From Candidatus Saccharimonadota bacterium (GTDB lineage: Bacteria; Patescibacteriota; Saccharimonadia; Saccharimonadales; AQU-01): DNA of 58,318 bases. The first letter of the stretch is position 1, and the number at the start of each line of letters is the position of its first letter. The stretch lies in the NCBI GenBank assembly GCA_037137935.1, contig JBAXJI010000004.1, forward strand, positions 1 to 58,318, in the 5' to 3' direction. This document shows, one piece after another, positions 3,325-38,920 of this stretch. The notes under the pieces were generated by a model. It was not told the origin of the DNA. It did not search any database and saw only the letters and a list, made by a program, of their open reading frames with translations. The position numbers were made by a program, and so were the translations under genes.

Positions 3325-3333
3325 TTAATAAAA

Positions 3334-3355
3334 CACCCTGACTTTCATCAGGGTG
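3334..3355. terminator. Hairpin between convergent genes (bidirectional terminator candidate)
   Basis: CACCCTGA-ctttca-TCAGGGTG is a perfect 8-bp stem. It lies between the helicase stop (3324) and the aquaporin stop (3380) and has an A-run upstream. Confidence 0.6.
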
Positions 3356-3379
3356 CTTAGTACTAATAGCTAAAAGCTA

Positions 3380-4156
3380 TTATTTTTTACGAGAAGCTGG
3401 CTTCTTGCGAGCCGGTGCTTTTTTGGCTGTACTTTTTGTTGTTGTCTTAGCTCGTGCAGATGTCGACTTAGCTCGTGCTGAAGTTGACTTAGCGCGCGAA
3501 CTTGAAGACTTGGCTTTTACTAAACGTGTAGGGAATGTAGACTCATCTGCAAATACCATACCGTAAAGGTTAATACCTACAAGAGCGCCCAAGAATGGTG
3601 CTGATGCGTAAGCCCAGCTCCATGAATAAATACCTGCAGCTACTGCTGGGTTTAAGACTGCGTTTGATGCAAGTGATGCAACTAGAATACCGACGAACAA
3701 TGAACCACCAATAATTGCCGCGTTCTTGCTTACTTCATGTTTTTGGAAGATCGCAGATGCAAAACCGAATGCAAAGATCATTGTACCAATTGCTTCTGCT
3801 GCAAATACTTTTCGTGAAAATTCAGTTCCGGCGACGCTTTCTAGGCTGTGGCCCAAGAAATACTTAATCAACGCGTAGGCAGCAAGACCGCCTAGGAATT
3901 GAAACATAATGTTTGCTACAGCTTTGAATGTAGAAATTTTTCTTACTGACCACAATCCGAATGTGATTGCAGGGTTTAGGTGCGCGCCTGAAAACGCGCC
4001 AACTGTTACTGTAAATAATGCTACTGTTCCACCCGCTGCTAGTGCTGCGAATAATGGAAATGATGTTCGACCTACGATTGTATAAACGACTAATGCTAGT
4101 GTCGCTGTTCCGATGAATTCTGCTAACAACATAGCGAGTTGTTTTCTTCCAAACAT
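3380..4156 (-). CDS. MIP-family channel (aquaporin/glycerol facilitator) with Lys/Arg/Ser-rich C-terminal tail
   Basis: Two NPA boxes (HLNPAITFG, VLNPAVAAG) and about 6 TM segments. Start moved to the ATG at 4156 because GGAGGG lies 6 nt upstream; the ORF-track start at 4219 has no RBS. Confidence 0.85.
   Translation of the reverse strand: MFGRKQLAMLLAEFIGTATLALVVYTIVGRTSFPLFAALAAGGTVALFTVTVGAFSGAHLNPAITFGLWSVRKISTFKAVANIMFQFLGGLAAYALIKYFLGHSLESVAGTEFSRKVFAAEAIGTMIFAFGFASAIFQKHEVSKNAAIIGGSLFVGILVASLASNAVLNPAVAAGIYSWSWAYASAPFLGALVGINLYGMVFADESTFPTRLVKAKSSSSRAKSTSARAKSTSARAKTTTKSTAKKAPARKKPASRKK
3447..3509 (-). repeat. 3 x 21-bp imperfect tandem repeat encoding the basic tail (AKSTSAR-type heptads)
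   Basis: Three consecutive units: ttagctcgtgcagatgtcgac / ttagctcgtgctgaagttgac / ttagcgcgcgaacttgaagac. Confidence 0.8.
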
Positions 4157-4300
4157 GATTGACCCTCCGTTAATTAATCCTATGGAATTAATCATAAATG
4201 CTTTTTGTGTTATATGCAAATATCAGTCAATAAACACAACAACAATCTATTTTTTTCTGTTAACAATTTATCAAAAAATTTCGTAAACAAATTCTATAAA

Positions 4301-4729
4301 TTAACGGCGTAAATGACGACGCTTGAGACCTGCAACTTGTAGTCTTACTGACTGACGATCTATCATACCTTGCGCGTGTTCTAATGATACTTGATCTTTT
4401 GCTTCTAACTTAAGTTTGTGTGCGTAATCAAATGCTTTTTGAGCTTCTTGTTCGTTAATTTCATCTGCGTTATCGGCCTCGTCAACTAATACTCTTAACA
4501 CATTATCTGCAACTTCAATTACACCGCCATTTGTAGCATAGTATTCAATCATGTCATCTTTGTCGGTTGCTTTTCTGCGAACACCAATTACGCCATGAGT
4601 TGCGACACTAATAAGCGGCATGTGACCTGGCATAACACCAATCTGACCTTCCAAAGTAGGAAGCAGAACTTCATAGACTTCTTCGCCGAATTTTACTCCA
4701 CCGAGTGTAACTAACTCAAATCTGATCAT
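4301..4729 (-). CDS. atpC: F1 ATP synthase epsilon subunit
   Basis: MIRFELVTLGGVKF..LPTLEGQIGVMPGHMPLIS is the typical epsilon N-terminal beta-sandwich, followed by a helical C-terminus. It is the last gene of the atp operon. Confidence 0.9.
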   Translation of the reverse strand: MIRFELVTLGGVKFGEEVYEVLLPTLEGQIGVMPGHMPLISVATHGVIGVRRKATDKDDMIEYYATNGGVIEVADNVLRVLVDEADNADEINEQEAQKAFDYAHKLKLEAKDQVSLEHAQGMIDRQSVRLQVAGLKRRHLRR

Positions 4730-4946
4730 CTTCCTAGATTTCTTTCTCTATGCAATCTGTCTTCAATTGCTTCTTTAATAGATAGGTAAGAGCCGGGCAC
4801 ATCGCCAACTACGAATTCTACACTAGCTGATTCAACAACTTCGATATCTTCACCGCGAATATATGCCTTGAATGATTCATGCTGCTGGGCAGTAAGAGCG
4901 TCGTTGAGGTTTGGTTCTGTTGAGAAATATGGAATTTGTTCAGACA

Positions 4947-4947
<1 letters not shown>
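4726..4947 (-). CDS. Hypothetical 73-aa acidic protein embedded in the atp operon
   Basis: Its ATG overlaps the atpD stop (TAATG) and its TGA overlaps the atpC start (ATGA). I recognise no family. Confidence 0.55.
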
Positions 4948-6446
<1,499 letters not shown>

Positions 6447-11976: not shown

Positions 11977-12178
11977 TACTCAATTATATCGCAATAATTG
12001 GTTTTCGTGTCGTAGAAGCTAATCAAATTACTTTTTTGACTACACGACAGCTTTGTTCTGAGCATGTATATGGTGTTATGTTCTATTGCGTAAACACTAA
12101 ATGTAGTATAATTATGGCGTAGATTAAGAGTGGCCAACCAATCATTCTTGGCCAAACCTTAACTACGGGGAGTTGTCT

Positions 12179-17572: not shown

Positions 17573-18037
17573 ATGAAGAAGAACTCACAGCATCAGACAA
17601 AACAAATTACTAATCGACGCGCTCGCCACGACTACGAGCTCGACGATTCTATTGTTGTGGGCATAAGTTTGACAGGCGCAGAGACTAAAGCGTTGCGTAT
17701 GGGCCACGGTCAACTCAGAGGTGCTTATGTTACTGTCAAAGATGAAGAAATCTTCTTAATTAACGCCACAATCAATGGTACTAGCGGTATACCAATAGAT
17801 GTCGACACGCAAACTCGCTCACGCAAACTATTAGCCAATCGCAAAGAAATCGACAAACTTATTGCCGCCAAACACCAGGGCCGCACCATTGTTCCTTTAG
17901 AAATTTTGACGCAAGGCCGCTACATAAAAGTACGCATATCAGCAGGCAAGGGCAAGAAGACATACGACAAAAGGCAGTCGCTAAAAAAGCGTGACGAAAC
18001 CCGTAGTATTCACGCCGTGCTTAAAGGTCAAAGATAA
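17573..18037 (+). CDS. smpB: SsrA-binding protein
   Basis: NRRARHDYEL.., GAETKALR, IPLEIL..GRYIKVRISAGKGKK.YDKR. Confidence 0.93.
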   Translation: MKKNSQHQTKQITNRRARHDYELDDSIVVGISLTGAETKALRMGHGQLRGAYVTVKDEEIFLINATINGTSGIPIDVDTQTRSRKLLANRKEIDKLIAAKHQGRTIVPLEILTQGRYIKVRISAGKGKKTYDKRQSLKKRDETRSIHAVLKGQR

Positions 18038-18053
18038 TTGATGTTTTCATAGA

Positions 18054-18082
18054 TTGACGGAGTGAGCCGAAAAATCTATAAT
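18054..18082 (+). promoter_or_regulatory. Sigma-70-type promoter candidate for tRNA-Asn
   Basis: TTGACG, 17-nt spacer, TATAAT, about 40 nt upstream of the tRNA. Confidence 0.55.
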
Positions 18083-18122: not shown

Positions 18123-18197
18123 TCGGGAGTAGCTCAATGGTGGAGCAAGAAGCTGTTAACTTCGAGGTTGCCAGTTCGAGTCTGGCCTCCCGAGCCA
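18123..18197 (+). tRNA. tRNA-Asn (anticodon GTT), CCA encoded
   Basis: Hand-folded cloverleaf. Acceptor TCGGGAG/CTCCCGA, D stem GCTC/GAGC, anticodon loop CTGTTAA, T arm GCCAG-TTCGAGT-CTGGC, discriminator G, then CCA. Confidence 0.95.
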
Positions 18198-18205
18198 TGT
18201 AGAAC

Positions 18206-18230
18206 GCACTTCATTCGTGAGGTGCTTTTT
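18206..18230 (+). terminator. Rho-independent terminator after tRNA-Asn
   Basis: GCACTTCA-ttcg-TGAGGTGC followed by TTTTT. Confidence 0.7.
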
Positions 18231-18408
18231 ACTGGGGTATTGTCCGACCACAGCTGTGGCTGTTGGAATGACATTTCTAAGATGCTGTGTCACTACCAAT
18301 ATCGCTAATAGCTTATGATGCTAGTACCCAAATCCCTTCTTCCAAGTAGAAATAAATGATATAATCTCAATGCTAGTGCATATAAAATTAGTAATTTAGT
18401 AATGGGGA

Positions 18409-19986
18409 ATGATGGAAACCGTCACAGGCCCACCGGTAACAAACGAACAACTAGTTGATGAAGCGCCTGTTCAGCAAGAAAAGCTGTCGTTATTTGATCA
18501 AGCGAAAGATTTAGTCAACAATTTCCGGGAGAGGATTAGGGGCACTTTTCCCGGCCAATCCGAAGAGCAGGTTACTAATTTAACAGGAGATGCTTTAGCC
18601 GATTTTGCCGTAGGAGAAGCTGATAAACCTCAGACTGATGACCAGGTTTTGGGGACAGAAGTAGCTTTTGTAGCCTCAGGGACTGAAGCGGTAGAGGATG
18701 GTCTGCTAGGGGGTTCGAACGACCCAATTAGAAAAGAGATTGCCGCAGGCGACCTAGCTCATGTAGTGGACGCAGTAAGAAACATTGCAGACAGTGGAGA
18801 CATTGCTACCGCTGAGACCATTGCCCATGATGTTGACAAGCTCGATCGCCAAGCTCAAATAGAAAAGCTTGAAAAAGGCATAGGTACAGTATATATATAT
18901 ATGGAAGACGGCGAGGATTTAAGCCCTGGAGAGTTGAAGAAACGAAAGAATAATGCTGAAGCGTGGAAAAGGGACCGGCAAGAGTGGCACGGAGAGGAGC
19001 TGGACTCAGCACATGACGCCGCACTAGAACTATCAAAGAAACTCGGTGATCCGCCTCGAATCATTGCTATGCGAGGAGGATGCGGATCGGGTAAGTCATT
19101 CGCAGTAAGAAGCATATATGGTGACCGGGGTATTTTTGATGAGGAGGGTGATGTTCCTGGAGCAGTAAAGCCTGATTACTTCAAAACACGCATCAAGCAA
19201 AAAGAACTAGAATCACCTCCCCCTCCAGGAGTAAAAGTGACATCCGAACAGGTGCATTTAGAATCAACTGGTATGAATGCTATGTTTACAGAACGCCTCG
19301 CCCAAGACCCTGAAGCGTCTTTATTGATCGATAAACAACTGGAAGCGGCAGATGACATTACTAGTCTTATTGAGATGGGCAAGAAATACGGGAAACCAGT
19401 GGAGCTCCTAGATATGGATGTACCAATCGAACTGTCGGCTTTTCGCGTACTTAAACGGCAAGTTGGTGGGGTTGACCCGAATATTAGATTTGATGGTGTT
19501 TCAGCAGGTTTTAGGGGCATTCGGGTTAATCGCGAAGCAGCGCTTAGCGCCGTTGAATCTGAAGAGATTGTAACTGAATATTCCTTGCGAGCTTTTGACC
19601 CAGAGAGTAGGCAACAAATAGAAATTGCGAAAAAAGAAGATGGCCGAGTGGTAGCAAGGGCTGGGTATGAAGACCTAGCTGAGCAAGTTATCAATCAGCC
19701 AGAAGCTAAGACTGATCAAGAAATTCAAGATGCGGCTAGTCAAATGATAACCGAGGAGTATATCGAAGATTTTGTAGCTAAATACTTTGATGACTCAGAG
19801 ACAGGCGAAAAGGGCCGAATGGAGGCACGCAAGATATTAGGTGCATATGTAGGTCTTGATATGACCGTCGAGGAAGCGTTGGCATCAAAAGCGGCAGGCA
19901 TTGAGGCAGATCCTGATTCACCAATGTTTTCTGGGGACTATAAAGATAAACTGGTAGCTTGGAAGGGTCAGCAGGATGAAAAATAA
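18409..19986 (+). CDS. Zeta-toxin-like P-loop kinase domain protein with about 200-aa acidic N-terminal extension and acidic C-terminal extension
   Basis: PRIIAMRGGCGSGKSF (Walker A), then AVKPDYFK (the Asp context of zeta/AvrRxo1-type kinases), VHLESTGM, LLIDKQ, and LSAFRVLKRQ (Arg pair). RBS GGGGA upstream. Confidence 0.6.
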   Translation: MMETVTGPPVTNEQLVDEAPVQQEKLSLFDQAKDLVNNFRERIRGTFPGQSEEQVTNLTGDALADFAVGEADKPQTDDQVLGTEVAFVASGTEAVEDGLLGGSNDPIRKEIAAGDLAHVVDAVRNIADSGDIATAETIAHDVDKLDRQAQIEKLEKGIGTVYIYMEDGEDLSPGELKKRKNNAEAWKRDRQEWHGEELDSAHDAALELSKKLGDPPRIIAMRGGCGSGKSFAVRSIYGDRGIFDEEGDVPGAVKPDYFKTRIKQKELESPPPPGVKVTSEQVHLESTGMNAMFTERLAQDPEASLLIDKQLEAADDITSLIEMGKKYGKPVELLDMDVPIELSAFRVLKRQVGGVDPNIRFDGVSAGFRGIRVNREAALSAVESEEIVTEYSLRAFDPESRQQIEIAKKEDGRVVARAGYEDLAEQVINQPEAKTDQEIQDAASQMITEEYIEDFVAKYFDDSETGEKGRMEARKILGAYVGLDMTVEEALASKAAGIEADPDSPMFSGDYKDKLVAWKGQQDEK

Positions 19987-20015
19987 TTCTAATAACAAAA
20001 GGAAGGAGAAGCAAT

Positions 20016-20333
20016 ATGTCTAATCCAAATAATGATAGTTTTGAAGTTTCCGCTACTTGGGCAGATCTGCATCGCGATGCGGCACAGAGGCAAGAGTCGG
20101 CTAATGAGGCGTTACTAGAAGAACGTATTGCCGCTGCCACTGCAGCCGGGAAAGAGCAATTCGATGCCGCTAAGCTATTGGGGCTATACTACCCAAATGA
20201 CTGGTCAGATGATGAAGCAGATATTCTTCGACGGGCTGAATCATTTAGAGAAGATTATTATCGTAGCGACACTACGACTTTAGAGAGTTGGGTAATAGAG
20301 CGAGAAGCCATAGAGGCACAGGGCGACTCTTAG
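20016..20333 (+). CDS. Small acidic helical protein (105 aa), possible cognate partner or antitoxin of the kinase
   Basis: Strong RBS (GGAAGGAG) 6 nt upstream, and the gene starts 30 nt after the kinase stop. No family recognised. Confidence 0.55.
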   Translation: MSNPNNDSFEVSATWADLHRDAAQRQESANEALLEERIAAATAAGKEQFDAAKLLGLYYPNDWSDDEADILRRAESFREDYYRSDTTTLESWVIEREAIEAQGDS

Positions 20334-20342
20334 ACTGATTTG

Positions 20343-21011
20343 CTAGGCGGCTGCCTCGATGCTGCCATTAACAATAATTGCAAACTCATTCAAAGTGCTA
20401 GACAGCAAGCTAATAAGGTCCTCGGGTAAGTCTTTCTGGGATAGAACTTCAAAAATCTGTTCGTAATTCCACAGTTGTTTTTCTTTTGGTGCGTTGAATT
20501 TTAACCATAGCTCGTCACCCAACCTCTGATAGTCACCTATCATTGATCTCAGGTTGTGGATCTTGTCGGCGGCCGAAATAATGAGAGCGTCTGGATTCTC
20601 TAAGGCTGCGAGATGATCAATGTAGCTCTGTTTACGCACTTCCCATGGAGCTTCGGTAGGATCATCTGCTCGTTTATTTTCAGAAACCATCTTAACGAGT
20701 TCAACAACATCACTACCAAATTCATCTAGCATCTGTTGTTCAGAATAGCGGTCTGATGGCACATCTTCTAGAATGTCATGGAACTCGGCTGCAATAACCG
20801 CATCTGTGTTGTCTGTATACTGAGAGGTTATCTCGGCGACAGCATGGGAGTGATTGCTATATGGCTCGCCAGAACCCTTGCGTGTCTGTAATGCATGTGC
20901 ATAATCAGCGACTTGTCTTGCATGCTCTAGTTTATCCCGGCTACTCTCAAAATTATTATTTTCCATATTATTATTTTCCATATTATTATTTTCCATATTA
21001 TTATTTTCCAT
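20343..21011 (-). CDS. HD-domain (p)ppGpp-hydrolase-type phosphohydrolase (RelA/SpoT HD_4-like, small alarmone hydrolase-like) with (MENNN)4 N-terminus
   Basis: AHALQTRKGSGEPYSNHSHAVA..AAEFHDILEDV..ISAADKIHNLRS matches the SpoT/Mesh1-type HD hydrolase pattern. Confidence 0.8.
   Translation of the reverse strand: MENNNMENNNMENNNMENNNFESSRDKLEHARQVADYAHALQTRKGSGEPYSNHSHAVAEITSQYTDNTDAVIAAEFHDILEDVPSDRYSEQQMLDEFGSDVVELVKMVSENKRADDPTEAPWEVRKQSYIDHLAALENPDALIISAADKIHNLRSMIGDYQRLGDELWLKFNAPKEKQLWNYEQIFEVLSQKDLPEDLISLLSSTLNEFAIIVNGSIEAAA
20952..21011 (-). repeat. 4 x 15-bp perfect tandem repeat (ATGGAAAATAATAAT on the coding strand)
   Basis: attattattttccat occurs four times head to tail. Each unit carries an in-frame ATG. 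Confidence 0.95.
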
Positions 21012-21105
21012 ATTAAAGTATAGTGTAAACCATTTTGCATAAAAATTCGCTTCAACTTTAGATTATATTTGCAGCCTAACAGGCGGACTGATCGTGGAAA
21101 AATGA

Positions 21106-21192
21106 CAAATCCTTCTTGATTGCAGTTATAACTTCATCTATCGTTGTGAGCCAAAGAAATAGGATCCCCACATTAATGTGGAGGTCCTTTTT
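21106..21192. repeat. Copy 1 of an approximately 80-87-nt dispersed repeat ending in a terminator-like hairpin
   Basis: About 80% identical over about 62 nt to 24078-24139. It is followed by a hairpin (GGATCCCCACA-ttaa-TGTGGAGGTCC, then TTTTT) whose sequence differs from copy 2 but whose structure is kept. Confidence 0.8.
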
Positions 21193-21222
21193 CTTTTGAC
21201 ATTGAAGATGTCAGGGCTCGAA

Positions 21223-21322
21223 CTGGACAGTTCGATAATTTCGTTATGACGAAATTATATACTGAGCCCGACTCGCCCTTTTTATTCGTGGCGAGCCGGA
21301 GCGAGGTAATATTCTGGCCTCC
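21223..21322 (+). repeat. Pseudo tRNA-Asn T-arm unit U1: degenerate 5' half (..CAGTTCG) + about 78-nt two-hairpin insert + TCTGGCCTCC
   Basis: 21313-21322 equals tRNA positions 18181-18190. The insert is homologous to the insert of U3 (23341-23424). Confidence 0.6.
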
Positions 21323-21338
21323 TCACTTTTGACCGGCA

Positions 21339-21379
21339 GAGGTTGCCAGTTCGGTTGCTAGCTCGCCCGGCCCGAGTCA
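21339..21379 (+). repeat. Pseudo tRNA-Asn 3' fragment U1b
   Basis: GAGGTTGCCAGTTCG is identical to tRNA 18164-18178. It is followed by gttGCTAGCTCGCCCGGCCCGAGtCA, compared with the tRNA ..CTGGCCTCCCGAGCCA. Confidence 0.55.
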
Positions 21380-21445
21380 TACTAATACCTAGCTAAAATA
21401 CGACTTTGATTAATGAGCACGGATTATAAATCAGATTATAGATGC

Positions 21446-22210
21446 TTATTCTGGACGGCTTAGCGCTTGACGAATCTTGCTTTTCTCATCAAATTCATAA
21501 GACAGACCCCTTACTACAACCACAGGACGATTCGTGCCTCGCTGACCCATTATTAGAGCGGCTGACGCTGCTACAAGATCGCATAGGGTTTCATCTGCTA
21601 TTTTAACTGAGCCCGAATCATCTGTAGTCGTGCTACGTCTTAGGCCAGGGAGGCCATAAAGACCGATAGCAACCTGAGTAGCCCCCGCTTTTTCTACACG
21701 TCCATCGCTATCAGTAACGACAACCGCAACTCGGACATTAAAGTTTTTCTGTATAGAATTTCCGATGCGCACAGCACTTTCATCTGAATCTTCGGGCAAG
21801 AGAACGACATGATCAGGCCCCATCTTATCTACACCAGCACTTGTCAACCTATTACCGTTAGGCAGCCAACCTGCAACGTAGTTATCGGCAATCTCCAAGC
21901 GACTTAAATCAGAAGTACCAGTTGCGTCAATGATCAGTTGTAGCGTACGAGGATCTTTGCGTGGAATACGTTCATGAAGTTCATGCGCTAACTTTCCAAC
22001 ATTCACAGTGTTGAGCGCAACAAGCCTATCTTCAGAAATTGAGATTGCCTTTGAGGCAACACAGAGTATATCTCCATCTTCAAAAACGAAGCCTGCTTTC
22101 TTTGAAGCATTGATGATTACGTCACTAACATTATCGCCTTTATTTATATGAGGTATGCCTGGGATAGCTTCGATTGTTATCTTCTTATTGGTGCGTAATT
22201 CCTTGTTCAT
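21446..22210 (-). CDS. CofE-like (F420-0:gamma-glutamyl ligase family) protein
   Basis: GDILCVASKAISISEDR, VAVVVTDSDGR, and AIGLYGLPGLRR resemble the CofE/FbiB N-terminal domain. Confidence 0.7.
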   Translation of the reverse strand: MNKELRTNKKITIEAIPGIPHINKGDNVSDVIINASKKAGFVFEDGDILCVASKAISISEDRLVALNTVNVGKLAHELHERIPRKDPRTLQLIIDATGTSDLSRLEIADNYVAGWLPNGNRLTSAGVDKMGPDHVVLLPEDSDESAVRIGNSIQKNFNVRVAVVVTDSDGRVEKAGATQVAIGLYGLPGLRRSTTTDDSGSVKIADETLCDLVAASAALIMGQRGTNRPVVVVRGLSYEFDEKSKIRQALSRPE

Positions 22211-22596
22211 CTAAAATCCTCTTTAATCCTATAATTGATTGTTCTGACATAGAAATCTTAACAGGTTTAATATCCTCTATGTTAAAAAGTCTAAACATAA
22301 TTTCTTCACCAACTACAGGCACACCAGATTTATGACCTAACTCCCTTAGATGATCTATCGTTACCATAATAGGAGCGTGTGTATTACTTGGATTAATCTC
22401 AAAACCGAGCTTTAATAAGCTTAGATAAAATCTGTTGTTACGAAGTAGTAGTATTGTTAGTGATCAGCACTAGGTCATGTTTTTGCGAAAGCATATTCAC
22501 GGTCTCTACAGCTCCTTCAACAGGTGTATCATTTACTAATATAGTGCCGTCTATATCACAAATAATCAGCTTCCGTTTCGGGATATTGACTCACAT
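22185..22596 (-). pseudogene. Decayed HAD-superfamily (NagD-like) phosphatase
   Basis: The minus strand reads ATG-TGA-VNIPKRKLIICDIDGTILVNDTPVEGAVETVNMLSQKHDLVLITNNTTTS-TAA. It then continues in another frame (..FYLSLLKLGFEINP..MVTIDHLRELGHKSG..). The DxDGT motif I is intact, but there are two in-frame stops or a frameshift, and the C-terminal half is missing. Confidence 0.65.
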
Positions 22597-22636
22597 ACTA
22601 TTTAATTATACTGTACCTCATGGAGATACAAGCATT

Positions 22637-23077
22637 ATGAAACTAAGAAAATCGGTTGTTGCGTTTTTTATCAAACAAGACGGAAATGATCGATATTTCT
22701 TGATTGTTCATAAAAGTTCACGACAAATATTAGACTGGGGACTACCTGCTGGCGGTCGTAAAAATAATGAGAGCACGCTTGCCACCTTCACCAGAGAAAT
22801 GTCAGAAGAACTGAATCTTAAAGAAGGTGACTATAAATTATTAAGCGTCGAACCAAAAATAATCCATAGCTACTTGTGGGGTAAAGACATGAAATCACTC
22901 ACTGGATTTGATGGCCAAATGCAAGAGCTCGTTTGTGCGAGACTCGAAATCGACAAAATGACACTTGGCGAAGAACTAGACGGGTACTGTTGGGTGAAGT
23001 TTAACGATGCAGAAAATGCCCCTATGCCAGCAGATCTTAAGCAGTTAATTATTGAAAAAATAATATATGTCGTCTGA
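22637..23077 (+). CDS. Nudix hydrolase
   Basis: Nudix box GGRKNNESTLATFTREMSEELNL. ATG at 22637 with GGAG upstream; the longer ORF-track start is not credible. Confidence 0.85.
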   Translation: MKLRKSVVAFFIKQDGNDRYFLIVHKSSRQILDWGLPAGGRKNNESTLATFTREMSEELNLKEGDYKLLSVEPKIIHSYLWGKDMKSLTGFDGQMQELVCARLEIDKMTLGEELDGYCWVKFNDAENAPMPADLKQLIIEKIIYVV

Positions 23078-23151
23078 GAATATTTTTAAACTAACAAGCC
23101 GGGAAAGGGACGTGGTTGATCGACAACCGCATAGGTTATGAGCATTAAATC

Positions 23152-23209
23152 GTCAGTTTGCTAATCCTAGCAACAAATGGGGCGATTACATCTTAATATT
23201 CTGGCCTCC
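23152..23209 (+). repeat. Pseudo T-arm unit U2a (degenerate 5' half GTCAGTTTGCTAAT + 37 nt + TCTGGCCTCC)
   Basis: 23200-23209 equals the tRNA 3' T-stem/acceptor segment. TAATATTCTGGCCTCCT is shared with U1. Confidence 0.4.
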
Positions 23210-23218
23210 TAATTGGCA

Positions 23219-23298
23219 GAGGTTGCCAGTTCGGTCCTTAGTCTGATGCCCGGAGATTTATCTCGGCGCACAGATTAAGGTGCGCTAGCTGGCCTCCC
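23219..23298 (+). repeat. Pseudo T-arm unit U2: GAGGTTGCCAGTTCG + 55-nt insert with two hairpins + CTGGCCTCCC
   Basis: The exact 15-mer of the tRNA 5' T-arm half is at 23219-23233. The insert contains CCGGAGAT/ATCTCGG and GCGCAC/GTGCGC stems. The 3' half is at 23289-23298. Confidence 0.6.
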
Positions 23299-23325
23299 AA
23301 AAAACCCGAAAGCCTTAGCTGACAG

Positions 23326-23441
23326 AAGGTTGCCAGTTCGCTAATTTTGGAAAAAGTAATTTTCTTTTTACAAAATTATATCCTGAGACCGAGTCGCATA
23401 ATGCGACGCGGCACGAGGGAGTATTCTGGCCTCCCGAGCCA
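23326..23441 (+). repeat. Pseudo T-arm unit U3, ending in an exact 17-nt copy of the tRNA-Asn 3' end (attR-like)
   Basis: AAGGTTGCCAGTTCG at 23326-23340, then an 84-nt insert, then TCTGGCCTCCCGAGCCA at 23425-23441, which is identical to 18181-18197. Confidence 0.75.
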
Positions 23442-23549
23442 AGCTGGAATAGACGAAGTCAGAACTGTGAAAATGGTTATGACTTTTCGTAACCCAGAGT
23501 AGAATTGAAATTGCACAAAAACTCTTATTATTTCGGATATAATAAGTGT

Positions 23550-24062
23550 ATGTATCTTTATCATCATGTACCGAATAACCAAAACGGAAGTATCATTTAT
23601 CCACTAAACCAGCTAAAGGATAGATTCCCAGATCTATACACCGAGCATTACGCAAAATACGATAATATAAAAGAGAAAGATGTAGAAATACCCGGATTTG
23701 GTTCTTGGAACGATTGTGTCAACCTAATGCCCGTAAACCCTGGGCTTGTTAAAGCAGAGCTGGAAAAGTACGACCACGACACAAATTGGCCTTGGAGATT
23801 TTACAGAATTGATGCAGAGAAGCTAGATACTAAAAAACTCATTATTATGATAATGAATGACCAGAGTAGTACTTCTAGGCGCGAATTTATACTTTTTAGC
23901 AAAGAAGCATTTAAGAAGTATTGCCATATAGGTGATGTTACTCGAGCGGTTTTTCAAAAAGCAAAAGACAACAACGAACAGCCAAACACATTTGCTCGAG
24001 TGCCGCATGTTCTATACAAAGACTCTATCAACACCCAAGGTCTTGAAATAGTAGAGTTTTAG
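23550..24062 (+). CDS. Hypothetical protein (MYLYHHVP.. family, function unknown)
   Basis: Long ORF whose first ATG is at 23550; the ORF-track start at 23505 is TTG. No RBS is evident, so the start is uncertain. Confidence 0.55.
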   Translation: MYLYHHVPNNQNGSIIYPLNQLKDRFPDLYTEHYAKYDNIKEKDVEIPGFGSWNDCVNLMPVNPGLVKAELEKYDHDTNWPWRFYRIDAEKLDTKKLIIMIMNDQSSTSRREFILFSKEAFKKYCHIGDVTRAVFQKAKDNNEQPNTFARVPHVLYKDSINTQGLEIVEF

Positions 24063-24077
24063 CTATTAAACATTAAT

Positions 24078-24156
24078 CAAATCCTGCTTAATCACAGTTA
24101 TAACTTCCTCTATTGTTGAGAGCCAAATAAAGAGACCCACGCAAGTGGGCCTTTTT
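24078..24156. repeat. Copy 2 of the dispersed repeat with terminator-like hairpin
   Basis: Matches 21106-21192. Hairpin GAGACCCAC-gcaa-GTGGGCC followed by TTTTT. It lies between convergent genes, so it is probably a bidirectional terminator. Confidence 0.8.
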
Positions 24157-24187
24157 ATATATACGTATATAGAATCGAAGATGCGTA

Positions 24188-26055: not shown

Positions 26056-26967
26056 ATGAAAATTGTAACCGCAGGTTCCGCTTATTTGGATATTGATGCT
26101 TACGCAGGGTGTATCGCTGAAGCAGAATTACTGAGAATTAACGGCGAAGATGCTTATGCAGCTAGTAGCGCCCCACTCAACGAAAGTATTCCCAGAAGCC
26201 TAAGGGTGTTGGGTATAGGGTTGGAAGAATACCGAGTAGGCGAAAAAGATGAATTTATTATTGTAGACGTTTCCAAAGAGGATTTTTTTGATCCGATAGT
26301 CAAGAATGGAACTGTGGTCGAGGTTATAGATCATCACCCGGGGCAGGAAAAGTATTGGCAAGAAAAAATCGGAGATAAAGCGGATATTGAATTTATAGGG
26401 GCATCCTGCACACAAATCTTTGAACGCTGGCAAACAGATAAACGATTACAAGAAATGAGCCCTGAGATTGCGCGCCTATTGGCAGCTGGGATACTAGATA
26501 ATACGCTTAACTTTAATGCTGATGTAACTACTCAAAGAGACCGAAATGCGTATGAAGTCTTGAAACAAATTGGCGGCCTACCTGAAGATTTTGCCGCTCA
26601 ATACTTTACAGAATGCCAAGCATCAATTGAAGATAACTTCGAAGAAGCAGTTTCGAATGATATTAAAACTATGGAAGAAGCACCAAAATTGCCACATTCG
26701 TTTGGGCAGCTAACGGTATGGGACGCAAAAGCATTTGCACTCGACAAAAAGGACTTAATAACCCAGATATTAAATAATCGTGATTCCGATTGGGCACTAA
26801 ACCTTATAAGTATCGGTGAAGGTCGGAGTTATTTTCTAAGCACTAGCGAAAGTGGTCAATCTAAGCTAAAAGCTTTAATTGGTTCAGATTTTACTGAGGG
26901 TATTGCTGAAGCAGACAGATTGTGGCTCAGAAAAGAACTATTGAATCTTGCTTTACAAAACCTATAA
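26056..26967 (+). CDS. DHH-family phosphoesterase-like protein
   Basis: DIDAYAG, IIVDVS and VIDHHPG resemble DHH motifs I-III. The start is chosen among three close ATGs. Confidence 0.6.
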   Translation: MKIVTAGSAYLDIDAYAGCIAEAELLRINGEDAYAASSAPLNESIPRSLRVLGIGLEEYRVGEKDEFIIVDVSKEDFFDPIVKNGTVVEVIDHHPGQEKYWQEKIGDKADIEFIGASCTQIFERWQTDKRLQEMSPEIARLLAAGILDNTLNFNADVTTQRDRNAYEVLKQIGGLPEDFAAQYFTECQASIEDNFEEAVSNDIKTMEEAPKLPHSFGQLTVWDAKAFALDKKDLITQILNNRDSDWALNLISIGEGRSYFLSTSESGQSKLKALIGSDFTEGIAEADRLWLRKELLNLALQNL

Positions 26968-27077
26968 CTATCTCTATCGTTGTCACTCAACCTGCAAATC
27001 ATAAATCAATACACTTAATATAGTTATGCTTTTGCATAAATTATATATATAATTATATGAAAATAAGGGGAAGCATA

Positions 27078-28511
27078 ATGATGATAACTAGACTATACAA
27101 AACAACTATCAAGTTAGTTACTGCAGTAGCATTGAGCTTAAGCCTAATTACAATAACTTCAATCATTCCGGCTTACGCAGCTAGTGGTGTAGGGGCTTGG
27201 GATTCTACTACGGCTTTACCTACAGAAACTTTTACTGCTAGCGGCGCTACCTATAATGGCTATATCTACAACGTTGATGGAACAACTAATGCAGGCGACA
27301 CCAATAAAGTCTATTACGCAAAGATTTCGGCCAACGGAACAATAGCTTCATGGAGTACAAGCGCCAATGACTTGCCTGACACATTTCATAGAGGCACATC
27401 TGTTGCTCATAATGGCTACCTTTATGTGGTCGGCGGATATAATGCCACACACTTACAGTTCAATACCGTATATTATGCGCCTTTAGATCCGGCAGATGGC
27501 CATGTGGGCGTCTGGAATGCTACGACAGTACTACCTACTATTAATCAAAGTGAAGCCGTTGTTATAAACAATAATTATATGTACGTAATTGGTGGCGGAA
27601 TTAACGGAATCGGTAACGTCGATACTGTTTACTACGCACATATTAAATCTGACGGAACATTAGATAGCTGGACTACATCTACTAATACACTACCGCAACG
27701 CTTAAGAAGAATTGGTGGAGTAGTGAATAATAACTTCGTCTATATAACAGGTGGCATTACGACCACTGGAAGCCAGTCGAACACCGTATATTACGCTCCT
27801 CTTAATTCCGATGGATCAGTAGGGTCTTGGATTACGAGCACAAACACTCTACCTACAGCAGTTTGGGATGCTAGCGTAATTACTAATAATGGATTTATAT
27901 ATAACATTGGCGGGCAAAGTGCTGCAGGAAATATTAATTCCGTATATTACGCTCCTCTTAATTCCGATGGATCAGTAGGGTCTTGGATTACGAGCACAAA
28001 CACTCTACCGGATTCAATCAATGGGGCAGTAGGTGGCGTATACAATAATAGGGCCTACATCACGGGAGGCTCTGGCATTACCGGACTTTTGCTATCAAGC
28101 GTATACTATGCGCCTCTGTTAGATACTCTTACTCAGTCTGCTAGTGTAGTAGCTAGCAAATCTACGGCTATCCCAGCGCTAGCAAATGCTCTAGGCTCTC
28201 AAAATATTTCAACACTATCAATTGTTACTCAGCCAGCTCATGGCACTGCAACAACTGGCGTGAACGGTGTGACCTATACTCCGACTAGTGGCTACACAGG
28301 ATCAGATAGCCTAGTCTATAAAATATGTTCCTTATACGATGCCGGCTTATGTTCTACTGTAACTTTGTCATTAACTGTTGCTCTTGGAGCACCGAACACT
28401 GGGATTAAATCAGATCACAAAAATTCTACGCTTAATACAGTCGAGTACATTGTTGCCGGTGTGACATTATTCTCGGCCGCTCTATTGAGCCGACGACACG
28501 CAAAACGATAG
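27078..28511 (+). CDS. Secreted Kelch/beta-propeller repeat surface protein with sortase-type C-terminal sorting signal (APNTG)
   Basis: Signal/TM segment at the N-terminus. About 7 repeats of the type ..NG(Y/F)(I/L)Y..GG....N.VYYAP...DG..G.W... The C-terminus is LGAPNTG + hydrophobic stretch + RRHAKR. Confidence 0.75.
   Translation: MMITRLYKTTIKLVTAVALSLSLITITSIIPAYAASGVGAWDSTTALPTETFTASGATYNGYIYNVDGTTNAGDTNKVYYAKISANGTIASWSTSANDLPDTFHRGTSVAHNGYLYVVGGYNATHLQFNTVYYAPLDPADGHVGVWNATTVLPTINQSEAVVINNNYMYVIGGGINGIGNVDTVYYAHIKSDGTLDSWTTSTNTLPQRLRRIGGVVNNNFVYITGGITTTGSQSNTVYYAPLNSDGSVGSWITSTNTLPTAVWDASVITNNGFIYNIGGQSAAGNINSVYYAPLNSDGSVGSWITSTNTLPDSINGAVGGVYNNRAYITGGSGITGLLLSSVYYAPLLDTLTQSASVVASKSTAIPALANALGSQNISTLSIVTQPAHGTATTGVNGVTYTPTSGYTGSDSLVYKICSLYDAGLCSTVTLSLTVALGAPNTGIKSDHKNSTLNTVEYIVAGVTLFSAALLSRRHAKR
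27784..28009 (+). repeat. Perfect 70-nt direct repeat (27784-27853 and 27940-28009), period 156 nt = one blade
   Basis: ccgtatattacgctcctcttaattccgatggatcagtagggtcttggattacgagcacaaacactctacc occurs twice. Confidence 0.95.
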
Positions 28512-28574
28512 AACTCCGTAATCACGTCAACTATACCGCTGGATCTACATATAAAAACTTGTACTAACGATTAA

Positions 28575-29060
28575 TTAGAGGTCTATAACAGAGACTATGC
28601 GTGAACGACTGACGACTGGGTCTATGCGTTCAATGAGGTAGAGCTTTTTTATTTCATTAATACTCCCGATAAGCGGCTTAGGATCTAGGGTAATCTCGCC
28701 TTTAAGCCTCCAAGTAACGTGTGGTAGATAGTTTTCACCTTCGTAATGTTGATCGCGTGATTCTATGTGACCAATTAGCAATCCAACTATTGTCTTGTGC
28801 AATTCTATCCATATTTCTGAATTTGTCACTTCTATATATTTATTGTCGTCATTGTCGTAGTTTTTTATATCTCCTAGGCGTAATTCACGTACACCCCTGA
28901 TTTCAGGACTACTCTGCATCAAATCAATAAGTTGCCGCTCATTAATATCAAGTAGCTTAAACTTCTTTTTAATTGTAAGGTGTGGATGTTGTGGCGGTTC
29001 AAGTACTTCATTAACAGCAAAATTTTCAATGAATGATACGAACATATATGAGTGTTCCAT
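28575..29060 (-). CDS. Putative 2H phosphoesterase superfamily protein
   Basis: Two H-x-T-x motifs at appropriate spacing (PHLTIKKKF and LPHVTWRL). Confidence 0.5.
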   Translation of the reverse strand: MEHSYMFVSFIENFAVNEVLEPPQHPHLTIKKKFKLLDINERQLIDLMQSSPEIRGVRELRLGDIKNYDNDDNKYIEVTNSEIWIELHKTIVGLLIGHIESRDQHYEGENYLPHVTWRLKGEITLDPKPLIGSINEIKKLYLIERIDPVVSRSRIVSVIDL

Positions 29061-29162
29061 TCAATAATGTTAGCACTTTTTGCGGCGAATAGATTGCACT
29101 ACCAAAAACTATTGGAGTCATCTGGCGTGATTCGAGCATATTTATAGTGCTAGAATATAGAC

Positions 29163-29426
29163 ATGGTTAAACACAAAATCGCTACTGGAGTAGTCCACGA
29201 AGTTCCGGACGACCTCTATAAAGCCTTGGTTGATGATGAGTCAGCTCTTGAAAGATGGGAAGATCTAACACCACTAGCTCGTAACGAATGGATCTGCTGG
29301 ACAATTATGACCAAAAAACCAGAAACTCGCGCCAACCATATTGATCGTACCATTACTGAACTACTAGAAGGGGTCCGACGACCATGCTGCTGGGCCGGCT
29401 GCATCCACCGCACACGGAACGCATAA
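29163..29426 (+). CDS. YdeI/OmpD-associated family protein
   Basis: LTPLARNEWICW...ETR..RI......L..G.RRPCCWAGCIHR pattern. Confidence 0.7.
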   Translation: MVKHKIATGVVHEVPDDLYKALVDDESALERWEDLTPLARNEWICWTIMTKKPETRANHIDRTITELLEGVRRPCCWAGCIHRTRNA

Positions 29427-29509
29427 TCGTAAGATTTACGAGCCTCAAAAATTTAATTTCTAATTGCCCACATAATCGCGATGTTTTGCCAGCACTATAA
29501 TAGGGTGCT

Positions 29510-30088
29510 TTACTCTAGCCAACCGAGCTTTCGAGCGCAGCCTGGCCATGGTCGCCAACCACTAACATGATACAAGTCTTCTGCGATTTGCTTTTGCTCG
29601 ATTGGGCTAGCCTTGTCAGCTGTTGGGGCAAATTTCTTGCCACCATTAGCGCGCCAAGTAGATTTATCAAACTGCAAACCGCCGTAATATCCATTACCGG
29701 TATTAATATCCCATTTACCTCTCGATTCGCACTGCGCCAACTCGTTAAGCATGCTGTCAATCTTGGGATCAACTAGCGGACGGGGGATTTCGTCCTTAAT
29801 ATTATCTAGTGCTGAAACCGCCGACATAGACTGCATAACAACATCATGACGAAAAGTCGGAGCTGGGCTGAATTGTTCGTACAAAGCACCAATCGACAAA
29901 CTACCAATTGATTTAATAAATATATCTTGCGGCTTACCCGGCAGTTCACTTATGTTTTCTACCTGATAATAGACAGTAGCCTCAACCCTTTGCTGCGTAG
30001 GCTGGGGCTCTGACTCAAACATTGGTATTGTTGCAGCCAAAGCGACGCCAATAGACGCGGCTTTAACTAGTCTTAATTTTTCTGACAT
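29510..30088 (-). CDS. Rpf-like (resuscitation-promoting factor/transglycosylase-like) secreted muralytic protein
   Basis: LAQCESRGKWDINTGNGYYGGLQFDKSTW is the Rpf domain core. ATG at 30088 with GTGAGG upstream. Confidence 0.8.
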   Translation of the reverse strand: MSEKLRLVKAASIGVALAATIPMFESEPQPTQQRVEATVYYQVENISELPGKPQDIFIKSIGSLSIGALYEQFSPAPTFRHDVVMQSMSAVSALDNIKDEIPRPLVDPKIDSMLNELAQCESRGKWDINTGNGYYGGLQFDKSTWRANGGKKFAPTADKASPIEQKQIAEDLYHVSGWRPWPGCARKLGWLE

Positions 30089-38155: not shown

Positions 38156-38920
38156 ATGAGCAAAACAATTACACTTATCGGTTTGAGAAAATTCAATTAT
38201 TTTATGGCGGCACTCCACGGCCTCCAAGCAGTCGCCTTACTGGCACTAAGTAAAAACTTTACTCTGCCTATAAGCGCAGGTTATTTGAGTTGGGACCAGG
38301 CCGCTATGAGAGTAGTGCCGCGGAGTACTGTGCTCTTTAACTTGTCACTGCCATTACTTATCGCCATGTTTTTGATTATATCGTCGGTTGCTCATATCAT
38401 AATAGCAACCGTATACAACAAAACTTATAACGAAAACCTACAGAAGGGCATCAACAAAGCCCGTTGGTTTGAGTACTCTATATCAGCAAGCATTATGATG
38501 GTTGCGATTGCATTACTAGTTGGTGTCTACGACCTAACAAGCCTAGTTATGATCTTCGGCCTTACTGCAATTATGAACTTGCTTGGACTTGTCATGGAAA
38601 TACACAACCAAACAACTACCAAGACTAACTGGGTTAGTTATTGGATAGGCTGCCTTGCAGGAATCATTCCTTGGCTAGTTATAGCATTTTACTTCTGGTT
38701 GTCAGCAAGCAAGGAAACAGCCGCGCCAGTATTCGTCTACGTCATTTTTATCTCCCTATTCATCTTCTTTAACTGCTTCGCAATCAACATGGTTTTGCAA
38801 TACAAAAAAGTCGGCAAGTGGAGTAATTACCTATACGGTGAACGTGCCTATATCATCCTTAGCCTAGTTGCTAAATCTCTACTAGCATGGCAGGTATTCG
38901 GCGGCACACTTCGTCCATAA
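38156..38920 (+). CDS. Heliorhodopsin
   Basis: Seven TM segments. Strong recalled similarity to heliorhodopsin 48C12: ..FNYFMAALHGLQAVALLAL, RWFEYSISAS (counter-ion Glu context), and KWSNYLYGERAYIILSLVAKSLLAWQVFGGTL (Schiff-base Lys in SLVAKS). Confidence 0.9.
   Translation: MSKTITLIGLRKFNYFMAALHGLQAVALLALSKNFTLPISAGYLSWDQAAMRVVPRSTVLFNLSLPLLIAMFLIISSVAHIIIATVYNKTYNENLQKGINKARWFEYSISASIMMVAIALLVGVYDLTSLVMIFGLTAIMNLLGLVMEIHNQTTTKTNWVSYWIGCLAGIIPWLVIAFYFWLSASKETAAPVFVYVIFISLFIFFNCFAINMVLQYKKVGKWSNYLYGERAYIILSLVAKSLLAWQVFGGTLRP

Follow-up and report, generated by a model that had tools for sequence, protein, structure and literature searches.

Downstream of the tRNA-Asn(GTT) gene in a DNA stretch of 58,318 nucleotides from a Candidatus Saccharimonadota bacterium (contig JBAXJI010000004.1, hereafter the window), the two halves of the tRNA-Asn T-arm recur several times, each time with an insert where the T-loop should be. 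This split T-arm pattern is real and not a product of chance. The 5.2 kb that follow the tRNA gene form a hypervariable array, and all joints between its segments are found directly after GAGCCA, the last six nucleotides of the gene. Our preferred interpretation, to which we assign a probability of about one half, is that the split copies are tRNA-mimic ends (pseudo-attB halves) of structured modules in a serine-recombinase cassette array at tRNA-Asn. On the evidence of an SmpB search, the source genome is a Candidatus Saccharimonas chromosome.

Results

The 13-mer GGTTGCCAGTTCG, which spans the variable loop, the 5′ strand of the T-stem and the start of the T-loop, is present exactly at 18166 (the genuine tRNA-Asn), 21341, 23221 and 23328; with up to two mismatches there are five matches where 0.92 are expected. 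The other half, TCTGGCCTCC, occurs exactly at 18181 (the tRNA), 21313, 23200 and 23425 and with one mismatch at 23288. Allowing one mismatch, seven matches were found against 1.56 expected, a number reached in none of 100 shuffles. Every copy has the orientation of the tRNA, and between the halves of each pair there is an insert at the T-loop position, which bears out the description given in an earlier reading made from the letters alone (the sequence-only reading). The terminal 17-mer TCTGGCCTCCCGAGCCA (23425-23441) equals the 3′ end of the tRNA, and the end of unit U3, where it lies, is a copy of the tRNA-side half of attB.

Five units can be distinguished (Table 1). The list in the sequence-only reading needs three corrections: U1b, given there with a short insert, is a unit of type B/D from which the hairpin insert was deleted, U2a is a degenerate unit of type C, and the apparent degenerate 5′ half of U1 results from fusion of an inverted T-arm copy to the direct 5′ half. 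In U1, the inverted repeat TCGAACTG-GA-CAGTTCGA (21218-21235), also noted there, is real. Several types of insert can be told apart, A and A′ in U3 and U1, B and D in U2 and U1b, and C in U2a; types A and C have the first hairpin and the end motifs in common, with an extra hairpin in A. As had been stated, U1 and U3 have homologous inserts (41 nt at 80% plus 32 nt at 81%), and the compensatory differences quoted for their hairpins are present. Compared with shuffled sequences, U1 (z = −4.2), U2 (z = −4.4) and U3 (z = −3.1) fold strongly, with none of 200 shuffles folding equally well, and the predicted folds of U2 and U3 are closed by the T-stem. The folds of the two degenerate units, U1b (z = +0.6) and U2a (z = −0.8), are not significant.

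The units belong to a larger module that recurs in relatives. The full module begins with a T2 terminator, which is followed by the T-arm 5′ strand and T-loop in inverted copy and by a small hairpin; then come the direct 5′ half, a hairpin insert of 50-85 nt at the T-loop, and the 3′ half. The 3′ end of the module is made of the T-arm 3′ strand and the acceptor 3′ strand and ends in GAGCCA, its last 16-17 nt being a copy of the tRNA-side (B) half of attB. The inverted copy gives the 5′ half two possible partners: it can pair upstream, which forms a hairpin of about 25 bp, or else with the 3′ half. Modules of type B are located just downstream of tRNA-Asn or just after an X/T2 joint (a slash marks a joint; X and T2 are described below) in contigs L003, L005, L009, L010, L023 and L116, whose SmpB proteins are 64-75% identical to that of the window. 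Their halves track each host's own T-stem (GCCGG/CCGGC, CTGG/CCAG), and in L009 the inverted copy matches the reverse complement of that genome's own tRNA at 16 of 17 nt. Several loop motifs, GTTCGGT among them, are invariant.

A covariance model of the type B unit (R1) finds all known copies plus the one in L116, matches U1b at 21337-21379 with E = 0.02 and, in a scan of Saccharibacteria loci that totalled 1.16 Mb with the 58-kb window included, had matches solely downstream of tRNA-Asn. In its alignment 89% of the cells are paired, compared with 78% after shuffling and 24-40% with slid partners; both-sided changes occur at 11 of 26 pairs, and the observed values were reached by 0-1 of 500 shuffles. 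Because the alignment was fitted to the model, these figures lean towards structure. The divergent L003 and L005 units score too low against the model and were compared by eye and by single-sequence folding only. We infer that the hairpin inserts are under selection for pairing, and the constraint probably acts on DNA. A family of tRNA-derived structured elements, one of two explanations offered by the sequence-only reading, thus holds as a description: the copies and the covariation that it had proposed to look for were found at tRNA-Asn of relatives, in varying number and with covarying stems. Ordinary contiguous tRNA repeats, which look different from the split units, are also present in the relatives L005 and L020. 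In viral contigs the terminal 17-mer gave five matches, all in unrelated coding sequence and attributable to chance, and there were no matches to the patterns of X or of the B unit.

The array of the window was compared with those of three contigs, L001, L002 and L091, whose SmpB is 100% identical to that of the window and whose flanks are 91-96% identical. Among the strains, the DNA after tRNA-Asn varies in how long it is, which genes it contains and how many units it has. With split or partial copies included, there are five units in the window, at least 11 in L001, three in L002 and two in L091, so that unit number, which had been singled out for checking, does vary. The same gene blocks occupy different positions in the arrays. 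The F420-ligase/NUDIX block of the window is 96% identical to L001 15339-17275, at another array position, and the cassette with a 185-aa open reading frame (ORF), E2, comes after a type A unit in the window, after a type C unit in L001 and after a different end in L091. U1b has its counterpart at L001 15276-15362 and U2a at L001 10809-10881. The units are better conserved between strains than their flanks: U3 is 100% identical to L002 10711-10821 over 111 nt, with flanks at 91-93%, and the U1 region is 99.5% identical to L091 2603-2809, with flanks at 95.7%. Some of the breakpoints between strains are inside units or inserts. Some units have halves of a different tRNA-Asn allele (GGTCGC..GTTCGA ... 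AATCCAGTTCCCGGAGCCA) or are chimeras of two alleles (L002 11010-11128, L001 12760-12840 and L091 2796-2880), which suggests that modules may be exchanged between Saccharimonadales lineages.

L091 provides an exact empty site. There, the GAGCCA of the tRNA is directly joined to AAGAAATAGGATCC..., that is, T2 followed by U1. The stretch matches window 21148-21353 at 99.5% identity, and both alignments include the 6-nt core. In the window, 2.95 kb separate the GAGCCA of the tRNA from T2, with the core at both ends. Because the two are joined in L091 and 2.95 kb apart in the window, 18198-21147 is an insertion between GAGCCA and T2. A T2-type terminator stands directly after tRNA-Asn, on the B′ side of attB, in all three contigs, and the L091 copy is near-identical to T2 of the window.

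A table of the junctions in the four arrays showed all joints at GAGCCA. The left arms are of two kinds, the end of the tRNA or of a unit (...CTGGCCTCCC/GAGCCA) and a motif that we call X (..GTTATAACTTCCTCTATCGTTGT/GAGCCA). The right arms are of three kinds: T2-type terminators, T1-type terminators and the left end of cassette E1 (TGTAGAAC...), which is P′-like. The core is present in tRNA/T2, tRNA/P′, X/T2 and X/P′. Cassettes with the order P′-cargo-X have the tRNA or a unit end on their left and a T2 terminator on their right, and a unit end followed by P′...X/T2 is found once in the window and three times in L001. Unoccupied joints also exist, namely tRNA/T2 in L001, L002 and L091, unit/T2 in L002, and X/T1 in L002 (12153) and in a further contig, L172. 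These results support a recombination site with several att scars. The sequence-only reading was correct that a plain attL/attR model fails for the split T-arms. The joints are not in the T-loop; they are directly after GAGCCA, at the 3′ end.

Motif X, which the sequence-only reading did not mention, is a conserved motif of about 50 nt that ends in GAGCCA. Its minus strand encodes WLTTIEEVITAIKQDL-like peptides (W-L-T-T-I-E-E-V-I-T-A-I-K-Q-D..stop), and the copies vary in a codon-like manner; X site 1 of the window reads W-L-T-T-I-D-E-V-I-T-A-I-K-K-D-L..stop, which corresponds to an alternative C-terminal tail of a large serine recombinase (LSR). The idea that X is a promoter for the minus strand was rejected because its variation follows codons and it matches LSR protein tails. 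The LSR gene itself adjoins tRNA-Asn in L023, encodes Resolvase, Recombinase and zinc-ribbon (Zn_ribbon_recom) domains, and its frame enters the tRNA to end in ..SWLGRPDSNRQPRS and a stop, a tail obtained by translating the reverse complement of the tRNA 3′ end. More than 350 homologues of this protein exist, most of them 545 aa long. Among the 120 listed (P0001-P0120), most tails consist of SWL plus a tRNA-derived tail and a minority are X-like, such as that of P0102 (..SLSWLPVIEEVITIIKNDLVLI and a stop). In the integrated LSRs, read-through into the antisense strand of the tRNA adds a tail of 10-15 aa, for example WLRGLDSNQRPSG, whose sequence is set by the tRNA-Asn allele of the host.

The gene for P0102 is on contig L086, which has an exact period of 8819 nt, indicating a putative circular element or tandem copy. 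Its attP, at L086 7570-7650, reads ..ATAGTTATAACTTCCTCTATTACGGGGAGCCA/AGATAGAGAGCC.. in the tRNA orientation, with the left arm ..TTATAACTTCCTCTATTACGGGGAGCCA/.., and the cargo (GmrSD/HNH, an EcoRI-like methylase, a helix-turn-helix protein and DUF4268) makes the element look like a shuttle for defence genes. The circular form thus concerns the relative L086 and not the cassettes of the window. Six LSR copies were inspected in their context (L023, L088, L089, L090, L171 and L172); all six are at tRNA-Asn, and X is at the far end, 8-10 kb away, in the five loci where it was located. The comparison of tails and sites indicates that X is the attP arm of this family of LSRs of about 545 aa, and that the LSR gene spans attP. 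Integration would therefore swap the C-terminal tail of the LSR and leave X at attR. The LSR has distant similarity (E of about 1e-10) to the PDB sequences 9dxh and 4kis and weak NCBIfam similarity to CcrA/B/C and XisF, at 43-60 bits. As the Ccr family cut-offs are 700-900 bits, the LSR is not a Ccr.

The remaining features of the locus are collected in Table 1. The tRNA-Asn gene is preceded by a canonical sigma-70-like promoter (TTGACG-17-TATAAT). The toxin gene of cassette E1 encodes 525 aa, of which the C-terminal part matches the XopAJ/AvrRxo1 zeta-toxin family (NCBIfam, 157 bits, cut-off 300) as well as Pfam Zeta_toxin, and the acidic 105-aa product of the following ORF may be its antitoxin or partner. 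The 5′ end of the HD-domain gene (minus strand, 20942-21016) consists of four tandem 15-nt repeats that give the N-terminus MENNN-MENNN-MENNN-MENNN and could be a slippage-prone tract. The HAD-like hydrolase gene of the window is fragmented, with a 60-aa ORF left, and the corresponding block of L001 has an intact Hydrolase_6 gene of 136 aa (L001 16167-16577). Where the window has the F420-ligase/NUDIX block, L091 has, at 3332-6250, two genes for N6/N4 DNA methylases and a 418-aa ORF that matches no family, possibly a restriction-modification cassette. A second variable stretch of the window, 26980-29782, adjoins the decayed third copy of X and includes genes for a Kelch/Big_9 surface-type protein (27057-28511), a 2′-5′ RNA-ligase-like protein and an OmdA-like protein; its counterpart in L002 has other genes, placed after the X/T1 joint at 12153. 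A heliorhodopsin gene is found at 38156-38920 (Pfam, E = 6.6e-99). A tmRNA or permuted tRNA beside smpB was also considered and discarded, as ARAGORN and Rfam found only three tRNAs in the window, all of them ordinary. No units were seen downstream of tRNA-Ser or tRNA-Leu in the window.

Table 1. Features of the tRNA-Asn locus in the window (positions in the 58,318-nt stretch).
Feature	Position	Strand	Description
SmpB	17573-18037		upstream of the tRNA-Asn gene
Promoter-like site	18054-18082		ahead of tRNA-Asn
tRNA-Asn(GTT)	18123-18197	+	CCA encoded
GAGCCA	18192-18197		last 6 nt of tRNA-Asn; common recombination core and left (B) arm of attB
Cassette E1	18198-21153	+	no LSR gene; inserted between tRNA-Asn and T2
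E1 left end			P′-like, TGTAGAAC..., with terminator
E1 toxin gene	18409-19986		AvrRxo1/zeta-like
E1 105-aa ORF	20016-20333		acidic; no family match
E1 HD-domain gene	20343-21011	−
X site 1	21076-21153	− (coding)	P arm of LSR attP; right end of E1; core GAGCCA 21148-21153
T2	21154-21200		bidirectional terminator hairpin
U1 (A′-type)	21216-21322	+	fused inverted T-arm copy, two-hairpin insert, 3′ half
U1, inverted T-arm copy and 5′ half	21216-21235
U1, insert	21236-21312
U1, 3′ half	21313-21322		TCTGGCCTCC
U1b	21337-21379	+	intact 5′ half, then 3′ remnant of D/B-type unit; hairpin insert deleted
Cargo of unit-bounded segment	21380-23151		F420-ligase-like gene, HAD-like pseudogene and NUDIX gene
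F420-ligase-like gene	21446-22210	−
HAD-like pseudogene	~22185-22600	−
NUDIX gene	22637-23077	+
U2a	23152-23209	+	degenerate C-type; 5′ half decayed, 3′ half intact (23200-23209)
U2 (B-type)	23217-23297	+	5′ half, 55-nt long hairpin, 3′ half GCTGGCCTCC; covariance model 101 bits
U3 (A-type)	23324-23441	+	5′ half, 84-nt two-hairpin insert, 3′ half and CGAGCCA
Cassette E2	23442-24125	+	no LSR gene
E2 T1 terminator / P′-like end	23442-23489
E2 185-aa ORF	23505-24062
X site 2	24066-24125	− (coding)	right end of E2; core GAGCCA 24120-24125
Second T2-type terminator	24126-24160		right edge of the examined part of the array, directly before ABC-transporter genes
X copy 3	~26963-26995		decayed; after DHH gene

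Discussion

The model that we favor for this locus can be stated as follows. An LSR supplied in trans by an autonomous element would recombine GAGCCA cores, and each unit end would re-create the tRNA-side half-site, thus offering several joints for the insertion, loss and shuffling of cassettes while the real tRNA stays intact. The array would be an alternation of B-type segments (T2...unit) and P-type cassettes (P′...X), in the order tRNA(B) / P′...X(P) / T2(B′)...unit(B) / T1(P′)...X(P) / T2(B′)..., where each joint would have the form of an LSR product, attL (B/P′) or attR (P/B′). The units are taken as tRNA-mimic B ends because the joints fit the attL and attR forms and the unoccupied forms exist. 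E1 and E2 therefore have both site arms and no LSR gene, since the window includes X sites and no recombinase.

Several observations weigh against this model. No LSR or other recombinase was found by Pfam among the ORFs of window 8.9-51.5 kb, by tblastn with the L023 LSR in the window, or in the L001 and L091 arrays, and for this reason the action of an LSR in trans is an assumption. The LSR-bearing elements that were seen adjoin a genuine tRNA and never a unit, and 0 of the 120 listed LSR tails reads into a split unit. The units may therefore be poor targets for integration, and the unit/cassette joints could reflect homologous recombination or successive insertions at the tRNA, each of which moves the older segments to the right. 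LSR elements are also integrated in genomes without any module, which shows that integration can do without it. The arm of the unit differs from that of the tRNA beyond about 17 nt. Across loci, T1 and T2 do not take the roles of B′ and P′ with full consistency, and a clean assignment was given up because the X/T1 joints of L002 and L172 allow two readings, as attR or as junctions of tandem elements. Finally, the model leaves the hairpin inserts, the inverted copy and the upstream hairpin unexplained. A further reading, which we advance only tentatively, is that the locus is an integron-like gene-capture platform of Saccharibacteria, run by an LSR in place of a tyrosine recombinase, with tRNA-Asn as anchor and two complementary kinds of mobile segment in alternation, P-type cassettes and B-type modules with a portable hairpin mimic of the tRNA 3′ end, in which the fold would let the recombinase or a host factor distinguish the end of a module from the tRNA.

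The modules themselves could be what moves. According to this alternative, which we regard as doubtful, the T2...unit segments would be small mobile attB-like segments that leave as "B-circles" by recombination of the left attR with the right attL and re-insert at X/P′ joints of elements or arrays, a portable tRNA mimic rather than a fixed landing pad. Formally, each module has B′ at its left and B at its right, and both the module-free joint X/T1 (L002 12153, L172) and the module-bearing X/T2...unit/T1 (window, L001) exist. The higher identity of the units compared with their flanks is also as expected of mobile modules, and the chimeric units of L001 and L091 together with the other-allele unit of L002 point to transfer between lineages. 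However, circles of a module were not observed, and with about 200 bp a bare module lacks the length to circularize easily; no module-like sequence was found in the viral contigs, and the position of the B-type modules in distant genomes fits vertical descent as well. The other explanation offered by the sequence-only reading, a graveyard of used att sites in which the inserts are random remnants of internal deletions, has become very improbable. This is a proven integration site with several scars, such as X sites and truncated units, and U1b does carry an internal deletion, but the same insert types are found at the same position in several strains and in distant Saccharimonadales, with compensatory changes, and the inserts are not remnants of LSR elements because the full-length elements have no T-arm pieces in their attP. 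The covariance-model scan and the covariation have thus largely refuted it.

That the units are genes for a tRNA-derived structured small RNA, transcribed from the plus strand and ended by a terminator after each GAGCCA, is unlikely. Strong folding, significant covariation and the invariant loop motifs would agree with an RNA, a hairpin resembling an intrinsic terminator comes after each complete unit, and in the lineage of the window G-T wobbles favor the plus strand by 6-10 kcal/mol. Against this, the minus strand folds better in L009, L010 and L116, so there is no consistent strand bias; no sigma-70-like promoter was found ahead of any unit, as there is ahead of tRNA-Asn, and the units stand directly behind a strong bidirectional terminator. 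None of the units matches an Rfam family, even at E <= 10, ARAGORN and Rfam give no tRNA (RF00005) or tmRNA match in them, they have no 5′ acceptor strand, and many copies are truncated or chimeric. Because promoters, Rfam matches and strand bias are absent, the reading as a fixed-strand RNA gene, which the sequence-only reading had included, is weakened and left without support, and a constraint at the DNA level fits, although neither is proven. It is less probable still that the units are attC-like sites, folded as single strands and used by an unidentified recombinase with the crossover in the T-loop or stem, as in an analogue of integrons. Integrons are built on the IntI tyrosine recombinase, attI and attC. 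As in integrons, small and mostly single-gene cassettes of strain-variable content are found at one anchor, the genes between units are small accessory types (NUDIX, GNAT, HD, Ham1, toxin), and between the cassettes there are structured sites of 60-120 nt, within the range of attC, whose fold is kept more than their sequence; one breakpoint between strains is located directly after the TTCG of a 5′ half. However, no tyrosine recombinase was found in or near any array (the ORFs that were scanned, in window 8.9-51.5 kb and in the arrays of L001 and L091, include no Phage_integrase-type protein), there is no IntI or attI, and the unit ends have no GTTRRRY core. The clean joints follow GAGCCA and are not at the T-loop, other breakpoints are inside inserts, as expected from ordinary homologous exchange, and folding shows no preferred strand. 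The linked enzyme is a serine recombinase that acts on double-stranded sites, and the cassettes are found in both orientations with terminators of their own. The array is integron-like in outcome and lacks what defines an integron.

The nearest analogue is the group of composite islands of the staphylococcal cassette chromosome (SCC) type, in which Ccr large serine recombinases act at the 3′ end of rlmH/orfX in staphylococci. The biology of those islands is established knowledge, and the comparison made here is of distant sequence similarity alone. In both systems a large serine recombinase family is involved, its gene here being found at tRNA-Asn of relatives and on the circular L086 and being absent from the window. 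Both have insertion at the 3′ end of a conserved gene, tandem elements with short repeated cores between them, accessory and defence genes as cargo, and recombinase-less cassettes that carry sites and could move in trans. The locus described here differs in its target, the CCA end of a tRNA gene, and in its recombinase gene, which extends across attP so that its C-terminal tail would change on integration. Segment boundaries carry tRNA-mimic hairpin modules, of which SCC islands have none, and the host is a member of the Saccharibacteria, in the candidate phyla radiation (CPR), with a genome of about 1 Mb. Characterized large serine integrases (SPbeta SprA/YokA, A118, TP901-1) have matching domains and, as here, a short non-palindromic core common to attP, attB, attL and attR; the similarity is distant, and the tRNA-Asn target and an attP inside the 3′ end of the integrase gene set the present LSR apart.

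Genomic islands of tyrosine integrases at tRNA genes have direct repeats of the 3′ part of the tRNA, with the tycheposon arrays of Prochlorococcus as tandem examples. Like them, the array adjoins a tRNA gene, repeats the tRNA 3′ end downstream (the 17-mer of U3) and includes degenerate sites; unlike them, it has no tyrosine integrase, and its repeats are not contiguous tRNA fragments: conserved hairpins interrupt them at the T-loop, and an inverted copy accompanies them. Dispersed repeats such as repetitive extragenic palindromes and bacterial interspersed mosaic elements (REP/BIME), miniature inverted-repeat transposable elements (MITE) or the palindrome-associated elements of IS200/IS605 (PATE) do not account for the units, which the covariance model found solely downstream of tRNA-Asn in the 1.16 Mb of loci scanned, and no Y1/HUH transposase was seen. 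In the searchable literature on integrons, serine recombinases and tRNA islands in Saccharibacteria/Patescibacteria we found no description of this system. The split T-arm modules are a conserved structured DNA or RNA element with no counterpart found in Rfam or in that literature.

Saccharibacteria are epibionts with tiny genomes whose routes of gene gain are poorly known, and the tRNA-Asn locus shows a specific and seemingly widespread one, given that the LSR has more than 350 homologues and all six inspected copies are at tRNA-Asn. This route adds toxin, restriction-modification and nucleotide house-cleaning genes beside smpB/tRNA-Asn, and cassettes that lack a recombinase could be moved along it in trans. 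An LSR gene that spans its own attP would have a built-in switch of state, as its C-terminal tail would change upon integration. A serine integrase specific for the end of a tRNA, with natural pseudo-sites, could also serve the genetics of Saccharibacteria.

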